DNA of 64,000 nucleotides. Source: a virus. Under the pieces are notes generated by a model, which saw only the letters and a list, made by a program, of their open reading frames with translations, was not told where the DNA came from and did no database searches. The stretch spans positions 32,001 through 96,000 of IMG/VR virus record IMGVR_UViG_3300044675_005482. One strand, given 5' to 3'. The first letter of the stretch is position 1. Each line of letters opens with the position of its first letter. Both the position numbers and the translations under genes were made by a program. This document shows, in pieces, positions 9,101 through 49,547 of this stretch.

Positions 9101-9601
9101 AACTCTGCAAAAAAGGGAAAGGCAGCTGGAGCAAATAAGGGAGATCTTACCGATGATGCAAGAGAAGATATTATTGATAAGTTTAAATTAGAAGAAGGCG
9201 ATACTTTTACTTATGATGGAAGAACCTATGTAGTTAAAAGAGGAGAGTCTGGCTGGATGCGCTCTAGGGCAGTAAAGAGAGCTGGCGGAGGAAGATTTGT
9301 ACCTGGACAAACATATACTGTAAATGATGGCATGAAGACAGAGGGTATTAGATTTGATATGCCTGGAACAGTTTATCCTAACATTAACACTGCTCCAAGA
9401 TATAATATTCCTACAAGTGGAATTAATGGAATGAGAGGCGGTGCAAATAATGCATCTTCTTCAAATTGTGTGTATAATATTAATATTGAATTAAATGGAA
9501 CCAATGTCACAGCAGACGATGTAATGAGAAAGTTTGAGCAAAAGATGCAACTTGTTGGTGCAAAAGAGGGAAGAAATAAAACCTATGGAGGTAACGTATG
9601 A
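3161..9601 (+). CDS. Tape measure protein
   Basis: 2146 aa, Ala/Gly/Leu-rich helical, typical TMP core region and GTDTVPAMLTPGEFVV motif; follows the chaperones. Confidence 0.92.
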   Translation: MAEEQVRTRITADADFSGLIADVHKVTASLSKLQEKIASSNKMFANQIAVMNRSFSDTLRSTGQFSTHFVSLNSDVEKFGKQLDSGQLKLNQYYKTMQGHTRTSGGLIRELAKQQVALQNSIIQPLGRNAQGLMQFNVQVPRGLNEVKNKAALARQELQIMNKVVQQGAGQLINWGKNTQWAGRQLTVGLTLPLAAFGKAAADAFRTADQELTRLTKVYGDTAGSTAEELGRVRKEVEDTAKALSQNLGASYRETLALGADIAATGQTGQQLIASIEETTRLAVLGEVDRGEAMKATLAIQSAFKQNTEELTESINFLNAVENQTSTSLADLVEAIPKAGPVIQGLGGSVQDLALYLTAMREGGINASEGANALKSGLASLINPTKVAVGQFKEFGIDLLGIVNENAGSTTDMLLALQAALDNLDPLKKQQAIENLFGKFQFARMNALFENLGKQGSQTLQVLDLMKASTDELGALADRELTAVTESASGRYNRAVEGLKAQLAGIGEAFLNINTTLINVVTKVLEFVQNMPKPLKQVLTLFGGLTAVAGPLIMLTGVLANFFGYIIKGVFHMKALLKGGEGWKYLTPEILAAEKAGSLIEQTLYSDAKAAGVLQLALRNLIDEFSVLEAKAASGSISVAPAVRTMAGNMVQEAGAGARMVDKNHPLVGPAYSRASSHMNPRGTMSETERLNQTFFGMVPGSIPVNQKIGANPQIYAESDLPNIPGLTRINGASTGIVASEAGKWHAMMATLGMQSQQEIAELKKSIAATGVASQQFMSIFDDVLPAVSGITRNAAIESRAIIAQLEAGAMNVQQARAEIIALNARTEALIAETTMAQARGMGRTLNPTMIPTLDQPVVNATGKSNMRELFKKSKTKDFIDKIARSLGVRTSGAGYNIETTIPKRFAKGGVVYRAEGSDGPEFKPMGTDTVPAMLTPGEFVVKADAVTPETLPYLKALNDSGAGKDFMPAAMMWQGTDANQALAGNRPSINLTGEFLANDMRQLHSRGLHPMALLYDQGVRLGYDKVQLQKALNAAYNELTSTFAAKGSTKINSRYFEVAANNIAMKHLKTVTRYSPAMKRQARMAEELMFIGHQRDARGKGELKGSRRSVGFDGQKIPKHLTGTSSGFSGGQNAAHFALAQELYDTPADNLYKGPLGSGSTLTKVFGAERGHIGPKVSPSRWNVLLETVRRKSRFAPIAPDERSIALTNKWRRGYSKGGMVYMAGGGLVPKTQYLAKGDTVKNAFQTGFQSGKTGPEGGPSEMGNTAAFGTGMALQMGGMYTGGSMGTGMMAAGTAMQMLPMLQMLKPALGQLKNITGMVTLFGKVAGNAFRIAGMAVKFFTGPIGIASLALGALFMAYRKITSIIKENRREQALLNGMTAKGAKEAGISYETMTDKLKRVNAELKLQREKGLLSYEATTSSGVSGLTLTIAELKELKKTAKETMPELLGTFNSIDSSKVNDLAANLKAQFVAGGMSVQDATNKIYALIEASNKAGQGFDAIAQKGFQQIIDKSSAAAFTVKALATNIRELEAGTSDVDSAAFAANVDSVIGSLDAAVQSLVGTKDATGEKITQTQALAMQYQKLVELGVKDNEIGEIGLKNLKKERPELASILKATDTIGGMYAKWRLTLAGIQVDLRNINSETAIGMAMYQDALNLAGDQIESGQVASRSLGKAAAASNKLKNEIKTGQDLIKKASDSEAGMNRKQIKAINDKIAAIKKEADAKRKAMSDSLEAENIELELQKLQLEAQSALARGDRDAYAQAQLSIQQLVNERHATESLNKVKENEDKAVEAQQKLLDADAEKKARQQEAIAGAGKSVENKAEVQKQIDDIMNTLTALAQRQRTNDLVKDKNKRETEDKAIKGDFNKVLELLEKSSNAVQNEFTSYVDPKTDKRVVGKEYKFPKQGTVTMGGADSAFQSLVDEVTSQGQTNYAKMVKDLGGGATLKDIVKAMGGSVAATKTLTTADVLAATGDKDINSAKKGKAAGANKGDLTDDAREDIIDKFKLEEGDTFTYDGRTYVVKRGESGWMRSRAVKRAGGGRFVPGQTYTVNDGMKTEGIRFDMPGTVYPNINTAPRYNIPTSGINGMRGGANNASSSNCVYNINIELNGTNVTADDVMRKFEQKMQLVGAKEGRNKTYGGNV

Positions 9602-26974: not shown

Positions 26975-27181
26975 ATGATATCATACGAAATACCAGATCC
27001 ATTTACTACATTTGTTACTAAAAAGTATCAAAACTATACTGGAATGGCTTATGATTTCTTTGCCAGAGAATGGCATTTAAAGTGTGCTTGTTGCAAAGAG
27101 GATCTATATGCACCAAACAAAAAGCTTATGACAAAGATTAGACTTTATCATACTAGAAACGAATGCACAGGCGGATATTAA
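26975..27181 (+). CDS. Small Cys/His zinc-binding protein
   Basis: CACC...H...C. Confidence 0.55.
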   Translation: MISYEIPDPFTTFVTKKYQNYTGMAYDFFAREWHLKCACCKEDLYAPNKKLMTKIRLYHTRNECTGGY

Positions 27182-30100
27182 TGAGTTTTACGCACTTACA
27201 CGTTCACTCCTATTATTCATTAATGGATGGACTTAACTCACCTAAAGAATTATGTCAGGCAGCGCTAGATGCTGGACAAACTGCAATTGCAATCACAGAC
27301 CATGGTACTCTCTCGTCACACAGAGATATGCAGATTGCTGCAAAGGAAATTGGCATTAAGCCGATTCTTGGTGTTGAAGCGTACATTTCTCCAACAGATA
27401 GGTTTGACAAGTCTTCTAAAACAGACAAGAGTATTCAAGCCTATAACCATATTATTTTGCTAGCTAAAAATAAGACTGGGTTGGAGAATATTAATATCCT
27501 GCAAGAGCTTGCCTGGAACGAAGGCTTTTATCATAAGCCACGTATTGACAGAGAGGTATTAAAAGAATATGCTGAAGGTATTATTGTATTGTCTGGATGC
27601 CTTAATGGGCTTATCTCTAAGTGCATCGAAAGGAGCGAGTTTTCTGAGGCTAAACTTATTCTCAAAGACTTTAAGAAAACTTTCGGTGAAGATTTTTATA
27701 TTGAGGTTCAATCTCACAACCCGAAAGAGGTTAACGAAAAACTCTTAGAGTTGGCGGACGAGCTAAAGATTAAGGCGGTGGCAACAGGAGATGCTCACTT
27801 TGCTAAAGAAGAAGATAGAATTCTAGAAGAAGCCCTGCTCATTTTATCTACATCTCCAAAGGCAGACAAAGACACAGATTTTGATATGTCTAGAAACATG
27901 AAGAACATGTTAGATAGATTTAACTATCTTTATCCTGATCGTAGAATTTCATTCCAAGATATGAATCTATTTATCCAGAGTCGCTCTGAAATTGAGGCTG
28001 ACTTTAATAAGGCTGGAATTACTCGTAAGGATATTTACGATAATACAATAGAGATTACTAATAAAATTGGAGACTATGAATTCCATAGCGGACTAGACCT
28101 TCTACCAGTCCCAAAAACAGATGCTGATGAAAGACTAAGGTCCCTATCTGAAAAGGGCTTAGAGAGCCTTCAGAAGGCTTCAGACCCAATTTATATAGAG
28201 CGCCTAGAAGAAGAGCTCTCAGTAATTGCATCTAAAAACTTTGCATCTTACTTCCTTGTTGTAGCCGATATGATTAACTGGGCAAAAGAAAATGGCATTA
28301 AGGTTGGTCCAGGTCGTGGCTCTGCTGCTGGATCCTTAGTTTGTTATGCATTAGGAATTACAGATGTAGATCCAATTGAATATAACCTTTTGTTTTTCCG
28401 ATTTATTAATCCAGAGCGAAATGACTTTCCAGATATTGATACAGACTTTGAAGACCGTCGACGTAAAGAAGTTAAAGACTATTTAAAGAAAAGATTTAAG
28501 CATGTTGCTTCTATCTCTACATATACTTATTTTAAGGATAAGGGTGTAGTTAGAGATGCTGCTCGTGTATTTATGGTTCCGCTTCAAGAAGTTAACCGTG
28601 CAATGAAATCAATTGACACCTTTGAAGACTTTATGGAGTCTCCAAATACAAAAGAATTTAGAATGAAATACCCAGAAGTTGTTTGGCTTGCAGAGCGTTT
28701 ACGTGGACGCATTCGTTCTGTTGGAGTTCACGCTGCTGGAGTTGTGGTGGCAAAAGATGATCTTAGAAAGTATGCTCCAGTAGAATCTCGTGCAGATGCT
28801 AATGACGATGTATCTGGACGTATCCCAGTTGTTGCATATGATATGGATACAGTTGCAGATATCGGACTTATTAAGCTTGATGCACTTGGACTTAAGACTT
28901 TGTCTGTTATATCAGATACTTTGTCATCAATTAAAAAGAGAACTGGCAAAGATATTAATCTTTCTAGTCTTAAGTTAGACGATCCAAAAGTCTACAAGAT
29001 GCTAAGCGATGGTTATACCAAGGGAGTTTTCCAGGCAGAAGCAACCCCATACACCAATTTGCTTATCAAGATGGGTGTGGATAAGTTTGAAGACCTTGTT
29101 GCATCAAACGCTTTGGTAAGACCAGGAGCTATGAACACGGTTGGAGCAGCTTACATTGACAGAAAAAATGGTAAAGAGGCTGTTGATTTTAGCCATTTGA
29201 TTATGAAAGAGTTTACCGAAAACACATATGGTGTTATTATATATCAAGAGCAGGTTATGCAAGCCTGTGTGTATTTAGGTGGCATGTCTTGGTCAGAGGC
29301 TGATAAGGTCCGCAAGATTATTGGAAAGAAAAAGGATGCAAAAGAGTTCGACCAGTTCAAAGATCAATTTATTGATGGGGCTTCAAAACACATTACTAAG
29401 AAAAAAGCAGAGCAGCTATGGCACGACTTTGAAGCTCATGCTGGATATTCTTTCAACCGTTCTCACGCTGTTGCTTATTCTATGCTTAGCTATTATACTG
29501 CTTGGCTTAAGTCCTATTATCCTCTTGAGTTCATGTTTTCAGTTCTTAAAAACGAAAACGATAAAGATGCGAGAACAGAATATTTAATTGAGTCTAAGAG
29601 ACTAGGCATTAAAGTAAAGCTTCCACATGTAAATGAGTCTGAGATGTACTTCTCTTTAAAAAATGACTCGATTGTTTTTGGTTTAGCTGAGATTAAATTT
29701 ATTTCAGACAACATTGCAAATAAAATAATAGAAAAGAGGCCATATAAAAACTATGATGACTTTATTGAAAAATCATCGCAAAAAGGTAGCGGTATTAACA
29801 GCAGGGCTGTCTCTGCTCTTAATGCCATCGGTGGTGCGGCGTTTGATGATAATCCAAGACAAGGTAACGAAAAAGACAACTACTACGAATACCTAGGCAT
29901 ACCAACATTTAATTTGGACCTACCTCCAAGAATTAAATCTCAAGCACGACCTATTTCTGAATTTGATGATCTAGGTTCGTTTGTAATGTTTGGAATGGTA
30001 AAGGCAATTAAAAGAGGAACTGGCTGGGCCAGAGTAGAGCTTGTTGATGAAACAGGATCTATTGGACTATTCCATACAGAGCAAACACAAATTGAGACTG

Positions 30101-30447
30101 GGCAAATGTACTTCATCCTTGTTGGAGATAATCGTATTGCCAGATACATTAAGGTTGGAGACATTGATCCCAAGTCCGACGATTTGTTTGTAGACTACCT
30201 GTATCGTAAGGAATATGATTTAGAAGAAGATGAATATATAGTTGTTAACTTTACTCCATACAAAACAAAAGCTGGCAAAATGATGAGCCACATAGTTTTG
30301 TCTAATGCAGATAAAGAATTAACTAGAGTAATTGTTTTTCCAACTATGTACAAAATGTCTTTAGCAAAGATGCGTGAAGGAATGAAGTGTAAGCTGGTTC
30401 TGTCAAAACTTGACGACGGAACTTTAAATGTTAAGGAGATACTATAA
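27181..30447 (+). CDS. dnaE: DNA polymerase III alpha subunit (DnaE) with PHP domain
   Basis: HLHVHSYYSLMDG, TDHG, GPGRGSAAGSLV, PDIDTDF, KLDALGL, YSFNRSH. Confidence 0.95.
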   Translation: MSFTHLHVHSYYSLMDGLNSPKELCQAALDAGQTAIAITDHGTLSSHRDMQIAAKEIGIKPILGVEAYISPTDRFDKSSKTDKSIQAYNHIILLAKNKTGLENINILQELAWNEGFYHKPRIDREVLKEYAEGIIVLSGCLNGLISKCIERSEFSEAKLILKDFKKTFGEDFYIEVQSHNPKEVNEKLLELADELKIKAVATGDAHFAKEEDRILEEALLILSTSPKADKDTDFDMSRNMKNMLDRFNYLYPDRRISFQDMNLFIQSRSEIEADFNKAGITRKDIYDNTIEITNKIGDYEFHSGLDLLPVPKTDADERLRSLSEKGLESLQKASDPIYIERLEEELSVIASKNFASYFLVVADMINWAKENGIKVGPGRGSAAGSLVCYALGITDVDPIEYNLLFFRFINPERNDFPDIDTDFEDRRRKEVKDYLKKRFKHVASISTYTYFKDKGVVRDAARVFMVPLQEVNRAMKSIDTFEDFMESPNTKEFRMKYPEVVWLAERLRGRIRSVGVHAAGVVVAKDDLRKYAPVESRADANDDVSGRIPVVAYDMDTVADIGLIKLDALGLKTLSVISDTLSSIKKRTGKDINLSSLKLDDPKVYKMLSDGYTKGVFQAEATPYTNLLIKMGVDKFEDLVASNALVRPGAMNTVGAAYIDRKNGKEAVDFSHLIMKEFTENTYGVIIYQEQVMQACVYLGGMSWSEADKVRKIIGKKKDAKEFDQFKDQFIDGASKHITKKKAEQLWHDFEAHAGYSFNRSHAVAYSMLSYYTAWLKSYYPLEFMFSVLKNENDKDARTEYLIESKRLGIKVKLPHVNESEMYFSLKNDSIVFGLAEIKFISDNIANKIIEKRPYKNYDDFIEKSSQKGSGINSRAVSALNAIGGAAFDDNPRQGNEKDNYYEYLGIPTFNLDLPPRIKSQARPISEFDDLGSFVMFGMVKAIKRGTGWARVELVDETGSIGLFHTEQTQIETGQMYFILVGDNRIARYIKVGDIDPKSDDLFVDYLYRKEYDLEEDEYIVVNFTPYKTKAGKMMSHIVLSNADKELTRVIVFPTMYKMSLAKMREGMKCKLVLSKLDDGTLNVKEIL

Positions 30448-36967: not shown

Positions 36968-37504
36968 ATGACAGAATTAGAACCAGCGGTGCATTTTGAT
37001 CGCATGAACAAGGTAGTTGAAGAGTTATTAAAGGGCAATACTCATAGTCAGATTGCAGCATCTACTGGATTCAAAAGAGCAGAAGTAATAGAGCTAATTA
37101 ATGAATGGAAAGATGTCGTTCATAATGATGTTAGTTTAAGAGGTCGTGCAAAAGAAGCCATATCTGGAGCTGATCAGCACTATGCAATGCTCATTAAAGA
37201 GGCCTGGAAGACCGTAGAGGACGCAGATACACAGGGCCAACTAAGTGTTAAGGCTGGTGCTTTAAAGCTCATAGCGGACATTGAGACCAAGCGTATAGGC
37301 ATGCTACAGTCTGTCGGGGTGCTTGAAAATAATGAACTGGCATCTCAAATTGCAGAGACAGAAAGAAAGCAGGAAATCCTTGTTGGCATATTAAAAGAGG
37401 TAACTGCAGGATGTCCAAAATGTAAGATGGATGTTGCTAAAAGGCTTTCACAAATTACTGGAATAGTAGAGGCAGTTGTTGTAGAGGACTCCAATGCCGT
37501 TTGA
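36968..37504 (+). CDS. Putative terminase small subunit
   Basis: N-terminal HTH plus coiled coil, directly upstream of the large terminase. Confidence 0.6.
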   Translation: MTELEPAVHFDRMNKVVEELLKGNTHSQIAASTGFKRAEVIELINEWKDVVHNDVSLRGRAKEAISGADQHYAMLIKEAWKTVEDADTQGQLSVKAGALKLIADIETKRIGMLQSVGVLENNELASQIAETERKQEILVGILKEVTAGCPKCKMDVAKRLSQITGIVEAVVVEDSNAV

Positions 37505-39290
37505 TTTTGGCGACTTAATAGATTTACTTGATGGCGAAGAGTTTGAAGAAAAGCCAGTAGATCTTCGTGAGTTTGTTACAAGCCCAAATTATTTAGGGCT
37601 TCCTCCATTGTCAGATCTTCAATACACATTAATCGAAAAAAGCTCACAAATATATAAAGAGTCCACATTGATAAAATTGTTTGGAGAAGAAGAAGGAAAA
37701 AGAATTGCAAAACAAACTGCAACTGAAGTTATTGCACAGCTAGGCAAGGGAAGCGGAAAAGATTACTGCTCTACAATTGCAGTATCTTATATAGTATATT
37801 TACTATTGTGCCTAAAGGATCCAGCATCATATTATGGTAAGCCTCCAGGTGATGCAATTGATATCATTAATATTGCTATTAACTCACAGCAAGCAAACAA
37901 TGTATTCTTTAAGGGATTTAAAACTAGAATTGAAAAGTCGCCATGGTTTATAGGTAAATACGATCCAAAGGCTTCTGAAATGAAGTTTGATAAAGCTGTT
38001 ACAGTACACTCAGGTCACTCAGAAAGAGAAGCCTGGGAAGGATATAACGTTATTGTAGTTATTCTAGATGAGATATCAGGCTTTTCTATTGAAAATACAA
38101 CAGGACACGATCAGGCTAAAACTGCTGACGCTATATATGATATGTATCGTGCATCCGTAGACTCTCGTTTTCCAGACTTTGGGAAAGTAATTCTTCTTTC
38201 ATTTCCACGATTTAAAAATGACCCTATACAAAAATTTTATGAATCTGTCATTGGTGAAAAAGAAACTATAATTAGAACACATAAGTTTAAGATGGATGAA
38301 GATCTTCCAGACGGAACTGTTGGGAATGAGTTTGAGGTTGAGTGGGAAGAAGATCATATAAAGTCTTACCTTGTTCCAAAAGTGTATGCTTTAAAAAGAC
38401 CAACTTGGGAAGTAAACCCAACAAGAAGCATTGAAGATTTTAAGACAGCGTTCTACAAAAATAGTATGGACGCACTTGGTAGATTTGCCTGCATGCCTCC
38501 AGAAATGATTGATGCATTTTTTAAATCAAGAGAAAAAGTAGAAAAAGCGTTTAACAACACAGGCATAGCCGTAGATCAGTTTGGAAGACTTGAAGAATGG
38601 TTCAAGCCAGATCCAGACAAAAAATATTTTCTTCACGTTGACTTGGCTCAAAAGCATGACCATTGTGCAGTTGCAATGGCACATGTCGATAGATGGGTAA
38701 ACGTTAAAGTAACAAGCGATTATTCTCAGCCAGCTCCAATAGTACATGTAGATGCTGTAAGATATTGGACTCCTACTCCAGATAAGTCTGTAGATTTTAC
38801 TGAAGTAAAAGACTATATTCTTTCATTAAGAACAAGGGGATTTAATATAGGTGTTTGCACATTTGACCGATGGAACTCTCACGACATGATGCAGCAATTA
38901 AAGCAGTATGGAATTAACACGGAGATTTTATCTGTAGCAAAGAAGCATTATGATGATATGGCAATGGTGGTTCTAGAAGAAAGAATTAACGGACCACATA
39001 TACCGCTTCTTATTGATGAATTGCTTCAGCTTAAGATAATGAGAGATAAAGTAGATCACCCAAGAAAGGGATCCAAAGACTTGGCTGACGCAGTTTGTGG
39101 ATCAATATTTAATTCAATTAGCAGAACTAGACCAGATAATAATTCTGAAATAAATATTCATACTTATGAATCAATGAGTTATGATAATGACTTTAAGGTT
39201 GATGATAAAGAAACATCACTGAATATGATTAGGCCACCAAGAATGCCAGATAGGTTGTCGGAAGCGCTAGAGAGTATGGAGATAATATGA
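37494..39290 (+). CDS. terL: Terminase large subunit
   Basis: Walker A GKGSGKD, Walker B VILDE, nuclease HVDLA, FDRWNS, SKDLADA. Confidence 0.9.
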   Translation: MPFDFGDLIDLLDGEEFEEKPVDLREFVTSPNYLGLPPLSDLQYTLIEKSSQIYKESTLIKLFGEEEGKRIAKQTATEVIAQLGKGSGKDYCSTIAVSYIVYLLLCLKDPASYYGKPPGDAIDIINIAINSQQANNVFFKGFKTRIEKSPWFIGKYDPKASEMKFDKAVTVHSGHSEREAWEGYNVIVVILDEISGFSIENTTGHDQAKTADAIYDMYRASVDSRFPDFGKVILLSFPRFKNDPIQKFYESVIGEKETIIRTHKFKMDEDLPDGTVGNEFEVEWEEDHIKSYLVPKVYALKRPTWEVNPTRSIEDFKTAFYKNSMDALGRFACMPPEMIDAFFKSREKVEKAFNNTGIAVDQFGRLEEWFKPDPDKKYFLHVDLAQKHDHCAVAMAHVDRWVNVKVTSDYSQPAPIVHVDAVRYWTPTPDKSVDFTEVKDYILSLRTRGFNIGVCTFDRWNSHDMMQQLKQYGINTEILSVAKKHYDDMAMVVLEERINGPHIPLLIDELLQLKIMRDKVDHPRKGSKDLADAVCGSIFNSISRTRPDNNSEINIHTYESMSYDNDFKVDDKETSLNMIRPPRMPDRLSEALESMEII

Positions 39291-39526
39291 GCGAGTATCA
39301 GGAAAGAGCAAAGGAGTGTAAATGCTGTGGAAAGCATGTTCCTCTACCAACCGTGTTAAAAGATTTTAACGGTATTATTTTATGCCCAACAACCTTTGCT
39401 AACGTAATGGAATATAAAAGAATATGGAAGGCAATAGGAAGTAGGCCAAGCGGATCTATTAGAAAACATTTCTCTGAGTATGTTCAATCTCTAGTAGAAA
39501 ATGAAGCTATTAATGAAGTTCAATGA
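39287..39526 (+). CDS. Small Cys-containing hypothetical protein
   Basis: CKCC...LCPT. Confidence 0.5.
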   Translation: MSEYQERAKECKCCGKHVPLPTVLKDFNGIILCPTTFANVMEYKRIWKAIGSRPSGSIRKHFSEYVQSLVENEAINEVQ

Positions 39527-40592
39527 TGTTTTTAATACCAGGGTACTTAATTCAATACATCCAGATTCGGTAGAAAGATTTTTATTTAACTTAGATTCAA
39601 ATAGCGTTTTAAATAAAGAACGTGTACAAAAAATGTTTTATAATAATATAAGCAACGAAAATATAAAATATATACACACTCTAGGAAAATCTGGACACAA
39701 AAATGACAACATTACATATTCTTATAATAGCTTGGGCTTTAGAGGCAAAGAGTTTGAGCCAGAAGAAGATTTAGTTATTGCTGGGTGCTCTCAAACTTTT
39801 GGAATGGGGCTAGAAGAAAATTATATATGGGGGAATGTAGTAGCAAACAGTCTTGGATATAAGGCCTCAAATATTTCTATGCCAGGTGCATCAACTGAAT
39901 CAATTATAAATAACATATATGCTTACTTTAAAGAGTATGGTCACCCTAAAATGCTACTAGCTCTTTTCCCAGACATGTATAGATTTCAAATACCAACTAA
40001 TAGAAAATATATAACATCTTCCTCTATTAAAAATGAAGGACCAGAACCTTACGAACAACCATACATGACCTACCTTTACCTTGATAAACAAGAGCAAAGC
40101 AAGAAGCCTAAGTACCAAAAGATTCCTTTTGATTTAGAAGAAATTATAACACCAGAAATTGCTTTTTTTTATAACATGAAAAGCATTATTATTTTAAACC
40201 AATATTGTAATGCATTGGGTATCAAATTTTATTGGGCTAGCTGGAGGCCAGAACTAGATATTGCTATAACAAAGATTAAATCTGATTCTAAAGACTACGA
40301 AAACTATGTATCATTAGACATATTTAACTGGTACACAAAGCACTCATTTGAAGAAGACCCATTCGGGGTTGAAAAAAATTTAATAGAATCGGAATATTAT
40401 CATAAAGATTACGCCTTAGATTGCTATAATTGCTATAATGAACAAGAGTGTGACATGATCGTTAATTGCCATGAGGAATTATTTGAATCTAATAAAAATT
40501 TGTTTCATCACGGAAATGACCGTGCACATATAGGCTCGCATAAACATCAACACATAGCAGAAAAATTTATTGAAAGGATAAAGAATGAATAG
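39513..40592 (+). CDS. SGNH/GDSL-like hydrolase or acyltransferase (paralogue 1)
   Basis: NSLGFR, AGCSQTFG, NISMPGAS, C-terminal HIGSHKH. Confidence 0.6.
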   Translation: MKFNDVFNTRVLNSIHPDSVERFLFNLDSNSVLNKERVQKMFYNNISNENIKYIHTLGKSGHKNDNITYSYNSLGFRGKEFEPEEDLVIAGCSQTFGMGLEENYIWGNVVANSLGYKASNISMPGASTESIINNIYAYFKEYGHPKMLLALFPDMYRFQIPTNRKYITSSSIKNEGPEPYEQPYMTYLYLDKQEQSKKPKYQKIPFDLEEIITPEIAFFYNMKSIIILNQYCNALGIKFYWASWRPELDIAITKIKSDSKDYENYVSLDIFNWYTKHSFEEDPFGVEKNLIESEYYHKDYALDCYNCYNEQECDMIVNCHEELFESNKNLFHHGNDRAHIGSHKHQHIAEKFIERIKNE

Positions 40593-40686
40593 AATAACAT
40601 TTACTACTTTTTATATTATAGAAAAAATAAAAAGAAAAATAAAGACTAAAAAATATAAAAAAAGAAATAGCGGGTTTATGTACTAA
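40585..40686 (+). CDS. 33-aa basic microprotein coupled to carbamoyltransferase (not in ORF track)
   Basis: MNRITFTTFYIIEKIKRKIKTKKYKKRNSGFMY*; TAATG junction with 40686. Confidence 0.5.
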   Translation: MNRITFTTFYIIEKIKRKIKTKKYKKRNSGFMY

Positions 40687-42194
40687 TGATTATCCTGGGG
40701 ATAAACGAGACTTCTCACGATGCTTCTGTGTCTTTAATTAAGGATGGCCAGATACTTTTTGCAGGACATGCAGAAAGATATAGCAAAGAAAAGAATGATT
40801 GGTATATAAATGATGATCTCCTTAAAGATGCTTTTTCTTATGGGTTTCCAGACCACATAGCATACTATGAGAAGCCTCTTTTAAAAGCATCTAGATTATT
40901 TTTAAAAGGAGGATCTGGAGACTGGCTTCCAAGATATAAAGTAGATAATATTTTTGGCAGACCTCTACCAGTAAAATCATTCAAGCATCACTACTCCCAT
41001 GCTTGTGCTGGGTATTATACTAGCCCATATGCAGACGCAGCTATTGTTGTGCTTGATGCTATTGGAGAATATAATACTTCAACCATCTGGGTTGGAGAAG
41101 GAGAAAAAATTAAATTAAAGTATAAGCAAAATTACCCAGTGAGCTTTGGACTTTTTTATTCGGCATTTACAGAGCTATTAGAATTAATGCCAAATCAAGA
41201 AGAGTATATAATGATGGGAATGGCAGCTTATGGAAATCCAGATAGATATTTTAATCAAGTAAATAATTATTTCCCAGAATACAATAAGCAAAAATATAAT
41301 TTTCACAAAGGAATAAAAGATTTTGATTGGGGACACGTTCCTTGTTTTGCTGGTACGGAGGGCACAGGCTATGTTGGAGAATGGTTCCAGCAAAGAAAAT
41401 TTGATTTAGCTGCGGCGGTACAAAAGGTATACGAACTAAGGCTTAGCGAGTTTATGCACATGGCATATACAATTACTGGTAAAAAGAATTTAGTTTTTAT
41501 GGGAGGTTGTGCTTTAAACAGCAAGGCAAATACAATGCTCTGGAATATATTTAAAGATGTTTGGATCATGCCAAACCCAGGAGACGCTGGAAGCTCATTA
41601 GGAGCAGCATTAGCACTATACGGCAAACACATAGAGTGGAAAGGTCCATATTTAGGACACGACATTGGTGGGAAATATCCAGTTCAAAAAATTTTTGATG
41701 GCATATTAAAAGATGGCATAGTTGCTGTTGCTTCAGGAAGGGCAGAGTATGGCCCAAGAGCTTTAGGAAATAGAAGCATCCTTGCTGACCCTAGAGATCC
41801 AAACATTAAAGACAAAGTAAATCTAATAAAACAAAGAGAGATGTTTAGACCGTTTGCTCCAGTAGTATTAGAAGAGTTTGCCAGCGAATGGTTTGATATG
41901 AATTTTGCATCTCCATATATGCAATACACTGTTAAATGTAAATATCCAGACAAGGTTCCATCTGTAGTTCATGTAGACGGAACATCTAGAGTTCAAACAG
42001 TCAATAGAGATCAGCATCCAGGCCTGCACATGGTTTTAAGAAAGTTTTACTGGGAAACTGGAATCCCAATGCTATTGAATACTAGCTTAAATATAAAGGG
42101 ACAGCCATTGTTAAATGATAAACAAGATGCTATTGACTGGCAGGAGCATTATAGATATAATATACTAACTAGCAACAATAGCTTAGTTGGTTAA
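40686..42194 (+). CDS. O-carbamoyltransferase (NodU/CmcH/TobZ family)
   Basis: HDASV, HHYSHA, VLDAIGE, GGCALN, EYGPRALGNRSIL, REMFRPFAP, HVDGTSRVQTV, LNTSLN. Confidence 0.93.
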   Translation: MIILGINETSHDASVSLIKDGQILFAGHAERYSKEKNDWYINDDLLKDAFSYGFPDHIAYYEKPLLKASRLFLKGGSGDWLPRYKVDNIFGRPLPVKSFKHHYSHACAGYYTSPYADAAIVVLDAIGEYNTSTIWVGEGEKIKLKYKQNYPVSFGLFYSAFTELLELMPNQEEYIMMGMAAYGNPDRYFNQVNNYFPEYNKQKYNFHKGIKDFDWGHVPCFAGTEGTGYVGEWFQQRKFDLAAAVQKVYELRLSEFMHMAYTITGKKNLVFMGGCALNSKANTMLWNIFKDVWIMPNPGDAGSSLGAALALYGKHIEWKGPYLGHDIGGKYPVQKIFDGILKDGIVAVASGRAEYGPRALGNRSILADPRDPNIKDKVNLIKQREMFRPFAPVVLEEFASEWFDMNFASPYMQYTVKCKYPDKVPSVVHVDGTSRVQTVNRDQHPGLHMVLRKFYWETGIPMLLNTSLNIKGQPLLNDKQDAIDWQEHYRYNILTSNNSLVG

Positions 42195-42245
42195 AGCCCC
42201 GAACTCATAATTCGGTAATCGTAGGTTCAAGTCCTACTTGTTGCA
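42172..42245 (+). tRNA. tRNA with CAT anticodon (Ile2/lysidine or elongator Met)
   Basis: Acceptor GCAACAA/TTGTTGC, anticodon arm CCGAA-CTCATAA-TTCGG, T arm GTAGG-TTCAAGT-CCTAC; lacks initiator features. Confidence 0.9.
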
Positions 42246-42258
42246 CACAGGAGGTGCT

Positions 42259-43263
42259 ATGTTTAATACACATATGGGTGACAATGAAAGCTTGCTGGAC
42301 GCAATGATCCATAAGCCAAGTCATTTTTTTAATGTGTCAGAACACACCAAATTTTTATTATATGATAACTCTTTAGTTAAAGACACACCTAAAGAAGTAA
42401 ATCCTGCTGTGTTTAGAAAGAATCAAATATCATACAGGATGAACAGAAAAAATTATAGGTCTCCAGATTTTCACAAAGACACCGACATTCTTTTTGCTGG
42501 TTGCTCTTTGACTTATGGTGACGGAATCCCAGAAGAATTTGTATGGCCTAGCATTGTTGCAAGAGATCTTGGTCTAACCTATGCCAATTTGGGACTATCT
42601 GGAGATTCAGTTTACGGACAAGTAAAAAGAATATTTGCCTACTTTAAAGAATTTGGACATCCTAAATATCTATACGCTATTTTCCCAGAATTTTATAGAA
42701 TGGTTATACCAATAAATAGAAGAGTGTTTACTACTGGGAATTCTGTAAGAGAATTAAAGGAAAGAAAAGATAATGATTATAATGAATTTATTTTAAAAAA
42801 TGCTTTTATTCCAGGCTCTATAGATAAAAACTTTAAAATGTCTATTCGTCCTCATGTTGCAGAGCATGTATTGAACCCAGAAATACCTCATTTTTTATCT
42901 GCACAAAGCATACTTATGCTGGACGCATACTGTGAAGCCGCAGGCATTAAGTTTGCTTGGTCTACGTGGGATCAAAAACAATTTATGGTGCTAAAATCAT
43001 TAGGAGAAAACTACTATAAAAACTTAATAGATATAGACATGGAGTCATGGGAAATATGCTATAGTCCAATAGAAGATAAGTATAAGAAAAATGGAGAACA
43101 GGTATTCTGCCATAATGAGTTAAAAGATATAAGCAGAGGGTTTTTTGATTTAGGTATGGATAGAGATTATGGAATTAAATCAGCACATTGGGGATCTCAT
43201 AGGCATCAGCACGTAGCTGATATCATTAAAAATCATGTATCGAAATGGATTAGTAATGGATGA
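42259..43263 (+). CDS. SGNH/GDSL-like hydrolase or acyltransferase (paralogue 2)
   Basis: AGGAGG RBS just after the tRNA; AGCSLTYG, NLGLSGDS, AYFKEFGHPK, HWGSHRH. Confidence 0.6.
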   Translation: MFNTHMGDNESLLDAMIHKPSHFFNVSEHTKFLLYDNSLVKDTPKEVNPAVFRKNQISYRMNRKNYRSPDFHKDTDILFAGCSLTYGDGIPEEFVWPSIVARDLGLTYANLGLSGDSVYGQVKRIFAYFKEFGHPKYLYAIFPEFYRMVIPINRRVFTTGNSVRELKERKDNDYNEFILKNAFIPGSIDKNFKMSIRPHVAEHVLNPEIPHFLSAQSILMLDAYCEAAGIKFAWSTWDQKQFMVLKSLGENYYKNLIDIDMESWEICYSPIEDKYKKNGEQVFCHNELKDISRGFFDLGMDRDYGIKSAHWGSHRHQHVADIIKNHVSKWISNG

Positions 43264-43537
43264 AATAATGCAACATTACCTAGAAATAGGTGCAATTGAA
43301 ATTTCTGGTGTAGATAGTAATGGAGAAATGCTGTTCTCTATTACTGAAAAAGCAAAGGAAGTTGCCCCAGAACTATGGGAGTCTCACCAAGAGCATGTAG
43401 ATAAAACCCTTATAGATCTTTATGAAAAGGGGCTTATTGAGGTAGAGTATAATGAAAACCTAGAGGCTGAAATAAAGTTAAGCGAAGCTGGCATTGAGGC
43501 ATCAAGAGAATACGGCTTAAGGTTTTTAGGAGAATAG
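43256..43537 (+). CDS. Hypothetical acidic protein (winged-helix-like)
   Basis: LYEKGLIEV...LSEAG pattern. Confidence 0.5.
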   Translation: MDEIMQHYLEIGAIEISGVDSNGEMLFSITEKAKEVAPELWESHQEHVDKTLIDLYEKGLIEVEYNENLEAEIKLSEAGIEASREYGLRFLGE

Positions 43538-43540
43538 TTA

Positions 43541-44590
43541 ATGTTTAGTTATCAGGGCTGGAAATTTGACACTATAGAATCAATACCATACCCAGAAGAA
43601 AACTTTGAAATAATTAAGGTTACTAACTTAAGGAACAGAGAGTCTATATCCTATGGCTCTGTAATTGAAGAGCCTGCCTTTATGATGCCAGCCAACGCAC
43701 ACCTGTGGCATTTTGTGCAGGAGGGCCTAGCTCAGTATGAAGTTATAGCCAATAAAATTCCATCAGTTAAGTTATTTTTGCACGACATACATATTGGAAC
43801 CGTAACAGAAAAATTTTTAAGTATTGAAAATTATTGTAAAATAAAAGGAAAGAATTTTAAATACATTAAAGATTTGTCTAATATTTATAGTCACGATAAA
43901 AAAGTATACATTACACACAGCAGGACTATTCTCATTAAGGAAGCATATTTTATTAACGATACACTAAGATTAATAGACAGAGATTTAGTGCTTCAAGGTA
44001 ATGTTGTGCCATACTGGGTAGAAGCAACAGATGCTGACGGTAACTGGATTGAAGGAGAAGAGTATAAAAAGGCTTCCCCTTATTTTAATCAAGACTGCAT
44101 ATACGATAGATGGCAGATGGACGGACTACACCTTGTAAAAGATAGATTGAGTCCTTATATAAAAGAAAATAATGAGTCTTATAAAAAAATATATATTAGC
44201 AGAGAAGATGTAAATAAAATGTGGTCGCAATTGTCCCCAGATAGAGCCTTTGCGGAAGAGCATATCTTGGTTGACTATTTTATTTCACAGGGGTATAATA
44301 AGGTTGTACTGACTAATTATGATTACATAGATCAAATTAATATTATTTTTAATGCTACTCATATTGTTGGTCTTACTGGTTCTGGTTTATTTAATACCTT
44401 TTTATGTAAACCTGGCACTACCGTAATTGAAATAAACGTAAGCGGTGGATACTATTGGTCTTATGAATATTTTAAAGAATTTAATATAAAAGTTAAAACG
44501 GCAGAACTAAGATGGAGAAAAGATTACACTGCAGTATTGTCAAAGAAAAACATGGATAAATTAAAAGAACTGGTAGAAAATAATGATTAA
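43541..44590 (+). CDS. GT61/DUF563-like glycosyltransferase (paralogue 1)
   Basis: HLWHF, KIYISR, QINIIFNATHIVGLTGSGL...VIEI. Confidence 0.7.
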   Translation: MFSYQGWKFDTIESIPYPEENFEIIKVTNLRNRESISYGSVIEEPAFMMPANAHLWHFVQEGLAQYEVIANKIPSVKLFLHDIHIGTVTEKFLSIENYCKIKGKNFKYIKDLSNIYSHDKKVYITHSRTILIKEAYFINDTLRLIDRDLVLQGNVVPYWVEATDADGNWIEGEEYKKASPYFNQDCIYDRWQMDGLHLVKDRLSPYIKENNESYKKIYISREDVNKMWSQLSPDRAFAEEHILVDYFISQGYNKVVLTNYDYIDQINIIFNATHIVGLTGSGLFNTFLCKPGTTVIEINVSGGYYWSYEYFKEFNIKVKTAELRWRKDYTAVLSKKNMDKLKELVENND

Positions 44591-45677
44591 TATAGTTGTT
44601 CCGCTAGCTGGAGAAGGAACTAGATTTTCTTCTGCTGGCTTCAAAACCCCAAAGCCTTTAATAGTTGTCGATGGCAAAACTATGATAGAGCATTCCGTAG
44701 AGACCCTTGGTATTAAGGGCAGGTATATTTTTATAACAAAAGAATATAAAAACAATTTATATAACATTGAGCTGTCCTCTATTATTAAAAGGATAATGCC
44801 AGATGCAATTGAAATAAAAGTTGATAAAAAACAACGTGGTGCTGCAGATGCCGTAATGTATGCAGAAAAATATATTGATAATAAGAACAGCTTAATAACA
44901 ATTAATTGCGATCAAATTTTAAATTGGGATGCGGAAGAGTTTCTTAAGCATGTTGAAGATTCTGGTGCTGACGGTGCTGTAGTTTTATTTAAAGCCGACG
45001 ATCCAAAGCATAGCTACGCAGAAGTTATAGACAATAAGATTATAAAGATTGTTGAAAAAGAAGTGATATCTAATGACGCATTAATTGGAGTACACTACTG
45101 GAAACACGGTTCAGATTTTGTTGCTTCGGCAAAAGAGCTTTTAAACATTGACGGCCCAAATGAAGTATATATATCTCAAACATACTCTGCTATGTTAAAA
45201 AATGGAAAGACAATATCTCCATTCTTTATTCCTAATAATGACTATATTAATTTAGGAACACCAGAAGACGTAACAATTTATTTGGGGAAGGTTAAAGAAT
45301 TTTATACAGACAAGCCAAAAACAATATTCTGCGATATAGACGGAACAATTATAAAGCACCTACACAAGTTCAGTGACCTAGGTAAATTTGATGCAGAAAT
45401 TTTGCCAGGGGTAATAAATAAGTTTAATGAGTGGGATTCAAAAGGATATAAGATTATTTTAACAACTGCTAGAAAAGAATCGGCAAGGGCAATTACAGAG
45501 AAACATTTAAATGGGCTTGGTTTGTGCTGGGACATGTTAATAATGGGAGTCACAAGCGGGCAAAGAGTTCTAATAAATGATAAACTAAACTATAAAGATC
45601 CAGATAGAGCAACTTCTATTAACCTAATCACAAACGACGGGTTTGAATCAACATACTGGGAAGAGTACGGGCTATGA
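44583..45677 (+). CDS. Sugar-phosphate nucleotidyltransferase fused to a HAD phosphatase
   Basis: VPLAGEGTRF...PKPLI, NCDQ, LGTPED; C-terminal FCDIDGT, TTAR, IND. Confidence 0.85.
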   Translation: MINIVVPLAGEGTRFSSAGFKTPKPLIVVDGKTMIEHSVETLGIKGRYIFITKEYKNNLYNIELSSIIKRIMPDAIEIKVDKKQRGAADAVMYAEKYIDNKNSLITINCDQILNWDAEEFLKHVEDSGADGAVVLFKADDPKHSYAEVIDNKIIKIVEKEVISNDALIGVHYWKHGSDFVASAKELLNIDGPNEVYISQTYSAMLKNGKTISPFFIPNNDYINLGTPEDVTIYLGKVKEFYTDKPKTIFCDIDGTIIKHLHKFSDLGKFDAEILPGVINKFNEWDSKGYKIILTTARKESARAITEKHLNGLGLCWDMLIMGVTSGQRVLINDKLNYKDPDRATSINLITNDGFESTYWEEYGL

Positions 45678-46003
45678 AGCTTTCAAGACTAGAAGACACT
45701 ATCGGAGGATGGTTTGTAGGAGATTTTGACAAGGCGGCATACAGGACAGATGCATGTGAGGTATCCTATAAGTATCATCATAAGGGAGAGCATTGGCCCA
45801 CACACTACCAAGAAAAGGTAATGGAGATCAATCTAATGGTTCGTGGACAAATGAAGATGCAGGATAAAATACTTTTATCTGGAGATATTTTTATAATATA
45901 TCCTTATGAGATAGCTGATCCAGAATTCCTTACTGACTGCGAAGTTGTTTGCGTAAAGGTTCCTGGAATTACAAATGACAAAGTGGTAGTTGAAAAGATA
46001 TGA
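45674..46003 (+). CDS. Cupin-fold protein
   Basis: GWFVGDF, HYQ...EINL..RG, GDIFII.P. Confidence 0.7.
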   Translation: MKLSRLEDTIGGWFVGDFDKAAYRTDACEVSYKYHHKGEHWPTHYQEKVMEINLMVRGQMKMQDKILLSGDIFIIYPYEIADPEFLTDCEVVCVKVPGITNDKVVVEKI

Positions 46004-46470
46004 GGCTTATATCTCATAGAGGTAATTTATCTGGACCAAATTCTGAAAAGGAAAATAGTCCAGAGTATATAAAAATAGCTTATGAATTAGGGTACGATGT
46101 AGAGATAGATCTTTGGTCTAATGACACAGAAATGTTTTTAGGTCACGATGAACCACAATATAAAATAGATTATGAGTTTATAAACTCAATGTCTGATAGA
46201 TTATGGGTACACTGCAAAAATTTAGAAGCCCTATATTGTTGCGAGTTTTTACTTAAAGATATAAACTATTTTTGGCATCAATCTGATGATTTTACTTTAA
46301 CTAGCAAAAACATAATATGGACATATCCAGGGAAATACTTAACTCCAAATTCTGTTCTTGTGATGCCAGAGCTTAATAAGTTTGCTGATATCGGTCCAGA
46401 TGTGTATGGTATTTGCACAGATGAGATTCTAGAAGTAAAGGAAATGCTAGATGACATACCAGTTTCCTGA
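46000..46470 (+). CDS. GDPD-like phosphodiesterase
   Basis: ISHRGN, ENSP, GYDVEIDLW, LGHD, GICTD. Confidence 0.75.
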   Translation: MRLISHRGNLSGPNSEKENSPEYIKIAYELGYDVEIDLWSNDTEMFLGHDEPQYKIDYEFINSMSDRLWVHCKNLEALYCCEFLLKDINYFWHQSDDFTLTSKNIIWTYPGKYLTPNSVLVMPELNKFADIGPDVYGICTDEILEVKEMLDDIPVS

Positions 46471-47569
46471 TAGATGGAAGGCTGAGTCGGTAGAAGTAAT
46501 AGATACACCAGATTCATTTGGCAAAATATTTAAGCTCTCTAATGTATCTTATACCAATAAGTCTCATACTGAAACAATACATGTACCAGGCAAAACTTTT
46601 ATTGGCTTAGCAGACTTTTATATATGGCATTTTTTATATGATTCGATTGCACAATTTTGTTATTTAAAAACTCAAATTAAAGATATTAATCTTTTTTTTA
46701 TTGCTCCAGCAGTAGTTGAGCCTGGCACAAAAGATGACTTCTTAGATCAAATGAAATACATTAGCTTTCATGCTAAGTCAGATACAATTAAAGAACCTCA
46801 GCCACACAAATATTTTGAAGATATATTTGAAATATTTGTAACCCAAGAACATATATATAATCTAGACTCTGTTAACTTTACTTTTGAGGAAGTATATTTT
46901 GTTTATGACAACGTTAGATATTTTAATAGAGTTCCAGAACTATTACATGCTGGCAAACACTGGTTTAATATACCATACGCATATTGGATAAATAACTCAT
47001 GGGAATCTCGTGCTCATATTACTAGGGGAGTTTTTCCAGAAACATGGTGGAGAAGCATAGGCATACTAGAAATGAGAAATATATTTTTAAAAAAATTAAA
47101 AGATGTAAAAACAGAAACTCCTAAAAAAATATTTTTATCTAGAAAAGATGCCAATGGGAGGTACAAAGAGAGAGGACTAAGTCCAACTTTTGATAGGTAT
47201 TGCAGTGACGAGGTAGACTCAACTGTAGAAGATTTTTTTGTTTCTCGTGGATATCACCCTATAGTTTTAGAAGGAATGGGATATCTAGAGCAATTAAATT
47301 ATTTTAAAAATGCTACACATATTGCTGGCATAGTCGGATCGTCTTTTTGCCAAACGCTTGTATGTAATCCTTCTGCCATAGTATCTCAAATTATGGTAAA
47401 TAGAAAATATGATTTTACCTACCAATTTATTTCAGAGATGGTAGGATATCATCTTAATGATATAGACTTAAGGTCAGTCTATCCAGTTATTGATAAAATA
47501 AAATTAATTTTAGAAAAAAAATACGGATTCATTGAGTCTGTACATAGGAGTAAAAATTATGAGATATAA
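46451..47569 (+). CDS. GT61/DUF563-like glycosyltransferase (paralogue 2)
   Basis: YIWHF, KIFLSR, EQLNYFKNATHIAGIVGSSF. Confidence 0.7.
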   Translation: MTYQFPDRWKAESVEVIDTPDSFGKIFKLSNVSYTNKSHTETIHVPGKTFIGLADFYIWHFLYDSIAQFCYLKTQIKDINLFFIAPAVVEPGTKDDFLDQMKYISFHAKSDTIKEPQPHKYFEDIFEIFVTQEHIYNLDSVNFTFEEVYFVYDNVRYFNRVPELLHAGKHWFNIPYAYWINNSWESRAHITRGVFPETWWRSIGILEMRNIFLKKLKDVKTETPKKIFLSRKDANGRYKERGLSPTFDRYCSDEVDSTVEDFFVSRGYHPIVLEGMGYLEQLNYFKNATHIAGIVGSSFCQTLVCNPSAIVSQIMVNRKYDFTYQFISEMVGYHLNDIDLRSVYPVIDKIKLILEKKYGFIESVHRSKNYEI

Positions 47570-48575
47570 TCAAGTTAATGCTATAGACATAATTCCAGTT
47601 AACTCGTCGGCATTTTGCATGAGGGTACCTAGAGTAAAATTTAAGTCTTTGCAGGCCAGAACACCCACAAGCATATATTATAATTTTGTATACCCAGAAG
47701 AACATGATCCTAATTTAGAAATTACTGAGCAGAGAGACGTATTTGTTATTCCCTATGTTGAAAAATATTATCATAACTTTTTAGAGCTTATTCCAAAGAT
47801 ATTGTTTTTAAAAAATATTAACCCGAATTTTAGATTAATAGTAATTGCCAATAATGAGTCTGAAGTTAATCCAAAAACTGGACTTTTTTATGGGTGGGAA
47901 AAGGGGGAAGACGACAATAATCATAATTTGAGCAACATAAAAGAATTTTTAGATATGTCTAACATTAGATATATGTGTACTCATTCAAAATCAGATTTTT
48001 TTCAAAACATGGTTGCCCAATCAGCGTACATATTCTTTGATTATAAAAAAAATATTGGAAGAAATCGTCCAAGCTTTTATCCAAAAAATTATGATTTTCC
48101 AAACTCGTACCCCTTTCACGCAACTACAGCTCAGACCGCAGAGTCTTTAATGCCGTATCTTGAGATATTACATGGAATAATAAATGAAAGTATATCTGGA
48201 AATAGAAGCATATATGTATCTAGAAAACATTTTCCAGAAAGAAAATTAGATAACGAAGAAGCTTTAGAGCAATTTATGATTGATTCTGGATACGAGATAC
48301 ATCATTTTGAAACAATGTCAATAGTTGATCAATTAAAATTAGTAAAAGAGTGCAAAAGAATAGTTATTTTAAATGGATCTTCCGCAGTTAATTGTATGTT
48401 TGCCAACCCAGGCACAGAAGTTTTTGTTTTTAATAACGGGGCTGACATAGTAGGTCTTTACGAAAAGGCTTGTGAGGAGTATAATATACAATACAACTTC
48501 ATAGAAATGCCAGACAACAATGCAGAATGGATAATTGAATATTTAAAAACAAATAAACTTAATAAGCCTTTGTAG
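47559..48575 (+). CDS. GT61/DUF563-like glycosyltransferase (paralogue 3)
   Basis: YYHNF, IYVSRK...RKLDNE, DQLKLV...NGSSAVN; AGGAG RBS. Confidence 0.75.
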   Translation: MRYNQVNAIDIIPVNSSAFCMRVPRVKFKSLQARTPTSIYYNFVYPEEHDPNLEITEQRDVFVIPYVEKYYHNFLELIPKILFLKNINPNFRLIVIANNESEVNPKTGLFYGWEKGEDDNNHNLSNIKEFLDMSNIRYMCTHSKSDFFQNMVAQSAYIFFDYKKNIGRNRPSFYPKNYDFPNSYPFHATTAQTAESLMPYLEILHGIINESISGNRSIYVSRKHFPERKLDNEEALEQFMIDSGYEIHHFETMSIVDQLKLVKECKRIVILNGSSAVNCMFANPGTEVFVFNNGADIVGLYEKACEEYNIQYNFIEMPDNNAEWIIEYLKTNKLNKPL

Positions 48576-48638
48576 CTCAGAGGACAGAGCAGGACTCTTC
48601 TAAGGTCTTGGTCGCAGGTTCGACTCCTGCCAAGGGCA
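48566..48638 (+). tRNA. tRNA-Arg(TCT)
   Basis: GCCTTTG/CAAGGGC acceptor, GGACT-CTTCTAA-GGTCT anticodon arm, GCAGG-TTCGACT-CCTGC T arm. Confidence 0.9.
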
Positions 48639-48642
48639 CAAG

Positions 48643-48715
48643 GCCCCTGTAGCCCAGTGGCAGAGGCACACGACTTAAAATCGTGAAAGCGTTGGTTCGA
48701 ATCCAACCAGGGGCA
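48643..48715 (+). tRNA. tRNA-Leu(TAA), short variable loop
   Basis: GCCCCTG/CAGGGGC acceptor, CACGA-CTTAAAA-TCGTG anticodon arm, GTTGG-TTCGAAT-CCAAC T arm. Confidence 0.88.
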
Positions 48716-48719
48716 CAAT

Positions 48720-48792
48720 TGGAGATTAGCTCAGCAGGCAGAGCGGGAAGCTGTTAACTTCTAGGTCATAGGTTCGAATCCTATATCTCCAG
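48720..48792 (+). tRNA. tRNA-Asn(GTT)
   Basis: TGGAGAT/ATCTCCA acceptor with U1-A72 and G73; GGAAG-CTGTTAA-CTTCT anticodon arm. Confidence 0.9.
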
Positions 48793-48812
48793 CAAATGTT
48801 AAACAGTTTTAT

Positions 48813-49547
48813 TTAGTCTTCTTCTGGCGTCCAGGCAGGACCTTCAAGCCATCTACCTATAGATTCTTTTGATCTATCTTTTACATACTTAAGATATTCT
48901 TCGCCTTTGTAATTATAAAATGTTCCAGGAGCATGTTCTGTTTTTGTTGCAAAACAAGAGAATGCATATCTTGTTCCAGAAGTCACAGGTTTTGTTCCAT
49001 GATAATATGGAGACTCAGCGCCATGAATTACAACATCTCCAGGTTCTGGTTTATATATTAATTCTCCAGGCATGCATTCAATTTCAGCATTTGGTTTTAA
49101 TGTTCCGTCTGGTAAAAATGCTGGATAAAAAACTTCTCCACCTTCAAATTCAGATAAATATGTTACAACACCATAATCAATTAGGCTACAGGTTCCGTAT
49201 GTGTCTTCTTGTGTAAGCTCGTGAGCTTTATCTTTTCCTGGATTATCAGCATGAATAAACATTCCTTCATGACCTACTCTAGAGGTAATTACTTGAGACT
49301 GTGGATTAATTACGTAGTCTGGATAAAGCAATTCTGACACATGCTCCCATAGATCTATAATGCCAGGAACTGGTGGGCTCATTTTGTCATCATACCAAGG
49401 AATAGCATTGCCCTCTTCCTGAAATAGCTCTGGATTAAAGGTATCTAGTATGCTTGAAAATCTATCGCACATCTCTCTGGGGACATATCCCTTAAATACG
49501 TATATGCCATCAATTATTTTAGTGCAATCTGGTCTGTCGTAGAACAT
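48813..49547 (-). CDS. 2OG-Fe(II) oxygenase (prolyl-hydroxylase-like)
   Basis: HAD (HxD), YLSEFEGGE, YHG, TRY. Confidence 0.85.
   Translation of the reverse strand: MFYDRPDCTKIIDGIYVFKGYVPREMCDRFSSILDTFNPELFQEEGNAIPWYDDKMSPPVPGIIDLWEHVSELLYPDYVINPQSQVITSRVGHEGMFIHADNPGKDKAHELTQEDTYGTCSLIDYGVVTYLSEFEGGEVFYPAFLPDGTLKPNAEIECMPGELIYKPEPGDVVIHGAESPYYHGTKPVTSGTRYAFSCFATKTEHAPGTFYNYKGEEYLKYVKDRSKESIGRWLEGPAWTPEED

Follow-up and report, generated by a model that had tools for sequence, protein, structure and literature searches.

In animal mitochondria the coding regions are punctuated by tRNAs, the excision of which defines the mRNA ends, and incomplete stop codons (T or TA) are completed by polyadenylation. 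This tRNA punctuation of animal mitochondrial transcripts was reportedly described by Ojala et al. in 1981. In bacteria, Hudson, Lau and Williams (2014; PMC4131195) found 250 same-orientation overlaps with an upstream coding sequence (CDS) in a set of 115,660 t(m)RNA genes and put forward the idea that non-stop mRNAs result from them; the commonest case was a CDS of the FtsW/RodA family, found in 44 Helicobacter genomes, that extends into tRNA-Ile(CAT), and in Carsonella smpB extends into ssrA. In the secG-leuU transcript of E. coli, one cut by RNase P separates mRNA from tRNA, and the upstream mRNA is gone within 30 s (Mohanty and Kushner 2007; PMC2241853). In the present study we examined a 64,000-nt stretch of viral DNA, bases 32001-96000 of the 113,997-bp IMG/VR record IMGVR_UViG_3300044675_005482 (rated complete by CheckV) and hereafter called the window, in which a carbamoyltransferase gene (CBT) and the third of three GT61-like genes (GT61c) both take their stop codons from inside a downstream tRNA gene. 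The features concerned are as follows.

40686-42194, + strand: carbamoyltransferase CDS (CBT; NodU/CmcH/TobZ type), 502 aa (Pfam, relatives)
42133-42161, + strand: predicted sigma-70 promoter TTGACT-17-TATAAT in CBT codons 482-493 (consensus, conservation)
42172-42245, + strand: tRNA(CAT), elongator Met or Ile2, without encoded CCA (ARAGORN, Rfam RF00005, covariation)
42259-48575, + strand: sugar-tailoring island of ~6.3 kb (Pfam), found in only some relatives
47559-48575, + strand: GT61c CDS, ending KPL (Pfam Glyco_transf_61, E 6e-19)
48457-48485, + strand: candidate second promoter TTTACG-17-TATAAT, ~80 nt before tRNA-Arg (consensus, conservation)
48566-48638, + strand: tRNA-Arg(TCT) (ARAGORN; Rfam RF00005, full-length match, 65.4 bits)

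At both junctions a Pfam-positive CDS stops inside a valid tRNA on the same strand, the tRNAs being supported by ARAGORN, by Rfam scores of 65-73 bits and by covariation, and the arrangement is conserved within a lineage, as in the class described by Hudson et al., so that the non-stop prediction applies here too. Unlike that class, the present case is in a phage, has two junctions (three in relatives) and several junction variants, and carries a predicted tRNA promoter inside the CDS end. It is, in short, an unusually stable member of the published bacterial class of CDS/tRNA overlaps, with the added feature that promoter, CDS and tRNA share bases. As with secG-leuU, the mRNA is followed directly by the tRNA with no terminator between them, but the secG stop lies 14 nt before the tRNA, no promoter lies between the two, and the processing of the phage RNAs is a prediction from sequence. 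Our search of the literature on phage CDS/tRNA overlaps turned up little. The layout is an uncommon one, to judge by the bacterial count above and by Streptomyces phage Gilson, a related isolate, where a sizeable open reading frame (ORF) reading into a tRNA was found in 0 of 31 cases. The coding regions also resemble those of animal mitochondria in lying flush with, or overlapping, tRNAs. Stop completion of the mitochondrial type is nevertheless rejected on frame: at the predicted cuts the messages would end ...ACU A (42168-42171, CBT) and ...AAU AA (48561-48565, GT61c), and added A gives AAA rather than a stop.

Two enzyme genes that stop inside tRNAs

tRNAs were called with ARAGORN and with Rfam RF00005, which are independent methods, and CDS families were assigned with Pfam. 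CBT matches Carbam_trans_N (PF02543, E 1e-39) and Carbam_trans_C (PF16861, E 1e-55), and the tRNA(CAT) behind it is a full-length RF00005 match of 72.7 bits. The CBT stop, TAA at 42192-42194, lies 23 nt into this tRNA at the boundary of D-loop and D-stem, and the tRNA therefore encodes the final seven codons of the protein (SNNSLVG) as well as the stop. GT61c ends at TAG 48573-48575, which is U8-A9-G10 of tRNA-Arg, with its final 10 nt inside the tRNA; its start is ATG 47559 and not TTG 47532, because the 99%-related L002 (L numbers denote related IMG/VR loci) has an in-frame stop in the upstream extension. Both junctions had been called in the original prediction, made from the sequence alone, and ARAGORN, Rfam, Pfam and the ORF reading agree with it on each.

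To place the CBT junction among its relatives, we compared 80 fetched viral loci (IMG/VR, CBT 73-99% identical) of 566 detected; together with the window, these give the 81 sequences over which junctions were counted. The 23-nt overlap is present in 57 of the 81, as 34 distinct junction sequences, and three loci (L003, L004 and L036) have a 10-nt overlap through a TAG at tRNA positions 8-10. In L081, CBT ends ...YNILT with its TAA flush against a tRNA-Arg, and 18 loci carry no tRNA after CBT, the protein then stopping at most a few residues from the ...ILT position. In a CBT tree from which the C-terminal columns had been excluded, the 23-nt state occurs on both sides of the midpoint root; according to this tree, adjacency to a tRNA was lost three or more times and the 10-nt type was reached twice independently. 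Distant homologues, from Ralstonia phage RsoM2USA and phage C48C1, end at ...ILT or at most four residues away (ends ...ILT/...VF), and this ...ILT end falls about where the tRNA begins; because of it, we regard the 7-residue CBT tail as a tRNA-encoded add-on. Homologues stopping before the tRNA had been named in the original prediction as an argument against its coupling of tRNA release to enzyme shut-off, and this argument applies at least in part, for L081, the tRNA-less relatives and the distant homologues do stop before or without a tRNA.

The 10-nt overlap of GT61c with tRNA-Arg is identical in all seven distinct relatives (16 loci, with some contigs contributing more than one), even where amino-acid identity falls to 50%, and relatives contain a third junction of the same type, in which a small ORF runs into tRNA-Asn and stops at TAG 8-10. 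Sequencing or assembly error, which might have removed earlier stops and had been allowed for in the original prediction, is ruled out for either overlap, the same junctions recurring in many independent metagenome contigs. These data clearly show that both overlaps are real and stable, in two large enzymes, at 50-75% amino-acid identity.

The overlapped bases evolve as tRNA and not as protein. Across 17 distinct tRNA(CAT) sequences 98.6% of cells pair, with compensatory changes at five of seven acceptor pairs and two of four D-stem pairs. The CBT tail variants (SNNSLVG, GVSSLVG, GASSSVG, SPNSSVG and others) track this covariation, and the alternation of the CBT stop between TAA and TAG is the covarying 13:23 pair of the D-stem. 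All three frames are closed within 23 nt of tRNA(CAT), by TAG at positions 8-10, TAG at 13-15, and TAA or TAG at 21-23, and spacer insertions of 1 nt (L036) or 4 nt (L003) shift the CBT stop to the TAG at 8-10, a trinucleotide present at these positions in 62 of the 76 distinct tRNAs of these loci. The broader idea that all tRNAs close three frames quickly is only partly true, holding within 26 nt for just 13 of 76, mostly of the tRNA(CAT) family.

Three further observations concern tRNA(CAT) itself. In L052 (8620-8820) a 55-nt tandem duplication lies inside the tRNA, with the CBT tail kept and an intact cloverleaf 32 nt further downstream; the duplication may be genuine or may have arisen in assembly. 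L060 carries a tRNA-Ile(TAT) (5758-5831) at the same post-CBT position as the CAT tRNA of L037 (5016-5089); the acceptor, D and T arms of the two match and the anticodon arm differs, a likeness hinting at a possible identity of the CAT tRNA as a tRNA-Ile2 that reads AUA. A tRNA-Ile(TAT) of its own is found at position 112083 of the genome under study.

A predicted promoter in the 3' end of CBT

Within the last 62 nt of CBT lies a putative sigma-70 promoter, with hexamers TTGACT (42133-42138) and TATAAT (42156-42161), which agrees with the consensus at 11 of 12 positions and, in the 10 kb scanned, shares first place among promoter-like matches. Its -10 box stops 10 nt short of position 1 of tRNA(CAT), giving a predicted transcription start at ~42167-42169. 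Codons 482-484 (GCT ATT GAC) and 491-493 (TAT AAT ATA) are each written with one codon in at least 97% of the sequences that keep the amino acid (38 distinct genes), against a baseline of 300 comparable columns, of which only 9.7% attain 94%; the neighbouring D481 and Y489 switch codons freely, and the promoter spacer is variable. Both marks by which a sigma-70 promoter can be predicted from sequence are found here, i.e. near-consensus hexamers with a 17-nt spacer, and hexamers conserved beyond coding need.

Where tRNA(CAT) is intergenic (L013, L049, L054 and L081), it is preceded by TTGACA, a spacer of 17-18 nt and TATAAT or TATACT, which stops 9-12 nt short of position 1. The promoter embedded in CBT stands, in L081, directly before tRNA-Arg, and tRNA-less relatives retain TTTACA-17-TATAAT across the CBT stop. 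Because the promoter is conserved at synonymous sites and travels with tRNA(CAT), this tRNA is very probably transcribed on its own, with a short leader, in an RNA that would continue into the island, and from the conservation of the embedded promoter we infer that the end of CBT is a conserved transcription-unit boundary. Here and below, the activity of the promoter, its start site and what becomes of the transcripts are predictions from the DNA.

An embedded promoter in GT61c is suggestive only and is weaker than that of CBT. The candidate is unchanged in seven distinct relatives, with five of five codons represented by a single codon against a baseline of 37%. A search with TTGAC-N18-TATAATATA, allowing at most one mismatch, gave three matches in the window where 0.11 were expected, two of them being the CBT and GT61c sites, and the + strand of the genome holds 10 sigma-70-like matches at 11/12 or better, against 2.7 in shuffles.

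A further TTGACT-17-TATAAT (11/12) is found at 44271-44299, inside the first GT61 gene and 290 nt before its stop. In relatives, other leading tRNAs (Lys, Asn and Ile) are preceded by a different conserved motif, approximately CCTWGGCATGA...AAACTGCCC, which ends 1-8 nt before tRNA position 1 (L032:10650-10682, L018:4320-4355 and L060:2270-2303). This motif is absent from the window and its spacing is unlike that of sigma-54; it may be a phage-specific promoter or processing signal.

The phage and its tRNA-bounded island

The source of the window is an uncultured ~114-kb freshwater phage of the siphovirus type, with ~37% GC, nearly all genes on the + strand and six tRNAs in the whole genome. 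Its terminase shares 62% identity with the terminases of Gilson, Kenrey and other Streptomyces phages in the Stanwilliamsviridae (former cluster BE), in which, as here, the terminase is followed by a region rich in tRNAs and small genes. A tmRNA (transfer-messenger RNA) gene is annotated in Gilson, whereas our search of the phage genome studied here found none. Megablast of the region against isolated phages gave no match, and the 37%-GC freshwater clade may infect low-GC Actinobacteria. Other features of the window are the following.

3161-9601: tape-measure protein
27163-30447: PolIII-alpha-like polymerase
37494-39290: large terminase
42250-43263, + strand: GGAGG ribosome-binding site (42250-42254) and first island gene (ATG 42259)
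43541-44590, 46451-47569 and 47559-48575, + strand: GT61-like genes of the island (Pfam)
44583-45677, + strand: nucleotidyltransferase-HAD fusion of the island (Pfam)
48643-48792, + strand: tRNA-Leu(TAA) and tRNA-Asn(GTT), completing the array; spacers of 4 nt (ARAGORN, Rfam)

Only 4 nt separate tRNA(CAT) from the ribosome-binding site of the first island gene, and the island also contains small ORFs. The first island gene (42259-43263) and a paralogue at 39501-40592, 32% identical and both without a Pfam match, flank CBT and its tRNA, and relatives have two to four copies of this paralogue around CBT. CCA is encoded by none of the four tRNAs in the window (42245-42246, 48638-48642, 48715-48719, 48792), and the spacers of the Arg-Leu-Asn array are 4 nt long. 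Downstream, between 48813 and 52554, lie genes for two 2OG-Fe(II) oxygenases (one on the - strand), a CHAP/NlpC-P60 peptidase, an Hsp20 and a staphylococcal-nuclease homologue.

Probable packing at a transcription-unit boundary, and its alternatives

We favour the reading, which we hold to be probable though well short of certain, that the overlaps are harmless, long-lived by-products of extreme packing at transcription-unit boundaries in a recombination-prone phage hot spot for tRNA and accessory genes. The sigma-70-type promoter in the CBT 3' end would make a transcript of tRNA(CAT) and the island with a leader of ~3-5 nt; promoter and tRNA would together fill the available space, so that the CBT frame would run on to the first in-frame stop, and GT61c would likewise use the near-universal U8-A9-G10 TAG of tRNA-Arg. 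The resulting tails of 3-7 residues would be dictated by tRNA structure, without protein constraint, and the loss of the stop from any read-through transcript cut by RNase P would be a tolerated cost and not a designed switch.

Several points count against this packing. Among the fetched loci with a tRNA directly behind CBT, 60 retain the overlap and one (L081) has a CBT stop of its own, a 60-to-1 retention that could reflect selection for the overlap. The use of the CBT promoter is predicted from consensus and conservation; the GT61c candidate is drawn from seven distinct sequences and lies 80 nt upstream of its tRNA. Read-through from upstream into the tRNAs may also still occur. As to the retention, few single mutations would be expected to make an earlier CBT stop without harming promoter or tRNA. 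With one to two codons free between -10 box and tRNA, there is almost no single-step route to a stop, and the persistence of the overlap is no proof of selection for it.

The alternative that survives best, although it remains doubtful as the whole account, is that cassette exchange at conserved tRNA anchors made the junctions, which would then have no function of their own; the original prediction had raised such scars. What lies between tRNA(CAT) and tRNA-Arg varies widely among relatives, from 0-3 nt (the two are adjacent in many) through other tRNAs, or a small ORF with tRNA-Asn, to the 6.3-kb island, which is patchy on the CBT tree and has genes 47-94% identical between the window and L017. 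In addition, tRNA-Arg is nearly identical across genomes in which GT61c is only 50% identical, although purifying selection alone would give high tRNA identity. Against this reading, the promoter is no foreign graft: the sequence that holds it has its counterpart in the CBT C-terminus of distant homologues. A search of 42000-49000 for tRNA-fragment direct repeats found none at the island bounds or elsewhere, and a Pfam scan of the island and flanking genes found no integrase domain, several small ORFs having no Pfam match. An integrase-mediated island at the tRNA is thereby rejected, and the locus is a recombination hot spot rather than a site-specific integration site. The idea of scars holds only loosely, for a tRNA array of variable content. 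It concerns origin and is compatible with the packing explanation.

It is unlikely, in our estimate, that the stop inside the tRNA is itself functional, making enzyme translation and tRNA folding or excision mutually exclusive on read-through transcripts, by shut-off or by shielding from RNase P, while the promoter would supply tRNA independently. If true, these phages would have a conserved way of resolving the conflict that arises when an mRNA and a tRNA share one transcript. Its first form, the coupling put forward in the original prediction, we consider improbable: maturation by RNase P would make stop-less CBT and GT61c mRNAs, the products of which would be tagged through tmRNA, so that tRNA release would shut off the enzymes. 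Terminator prediction finds none between either CDS and its tRNA, the RNase P cut would precede the stop, which poly(A) would not restore, the overlap is long persistent, and the same suggestion exists for CDS/tRNA overlaps of bacteria (PMC4131195). However, supply of the tRNAs from their own promoters, which the original prediction had itself set against such coupling, applies at least in part, in that the conserved dedicated promoter predicted in CBT can supply tRNA with the CBT mRNA untouched. Variants with 0-, 10- and 23-nt overlaps and tRNA-less relatives all persist, nothing ties these enzymes to a need for timed shut-off, and tagging would depend on a host tmRNA, as the phage genome has no tmRNA gene. 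The secG-leuU upstream mRNA is destroyed after the RNase P cut even though its stop is outside the tRNA, and because that stop lies 14 nt before the tRNA, a stop inside is not needed for such coupling (PMC2241853). The shut-off model is thus not needed; nothing shows that the overlaps are a regulatory switch, and no new regulatory principle is revealed at present.

The second form, to which we likewise give little credence, is pure inference: the footprint of a ribosome at termination extends some 12-15 nt past the stop codon, and ribosomes terminating 10-23 nt inside the tRNA would keep its acceptor and D arms unfolded and block RNase P (past the CBT stop the footprint would reach the anticodon stem), tRNA coming only from the short, untranslated precursors that the internal promoter would give, but 10-nt overlaps cover much less of the tRNA, and L081, with its stop abutting the tRNA, lacks any masking and persists.

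Packing, as we read it, bears on phage genomes and on how they are annotated. Approximately 62 nt serve as protein end, predicted promoter and first third of a tRNA, which makes the locus a well-replicated natural example of shared sequence, and CDS/tRNA overlaps can evidently stay stable over long divergence. Annotation pipelines that bar overlap between CDS and tRNA would truncate or drop these genes. For the biology of these phages, the promoter-tRNA module, together with the variable tRNA array, marks a transcription-unit boundary and a hot spot for the exchange of accessory genes.

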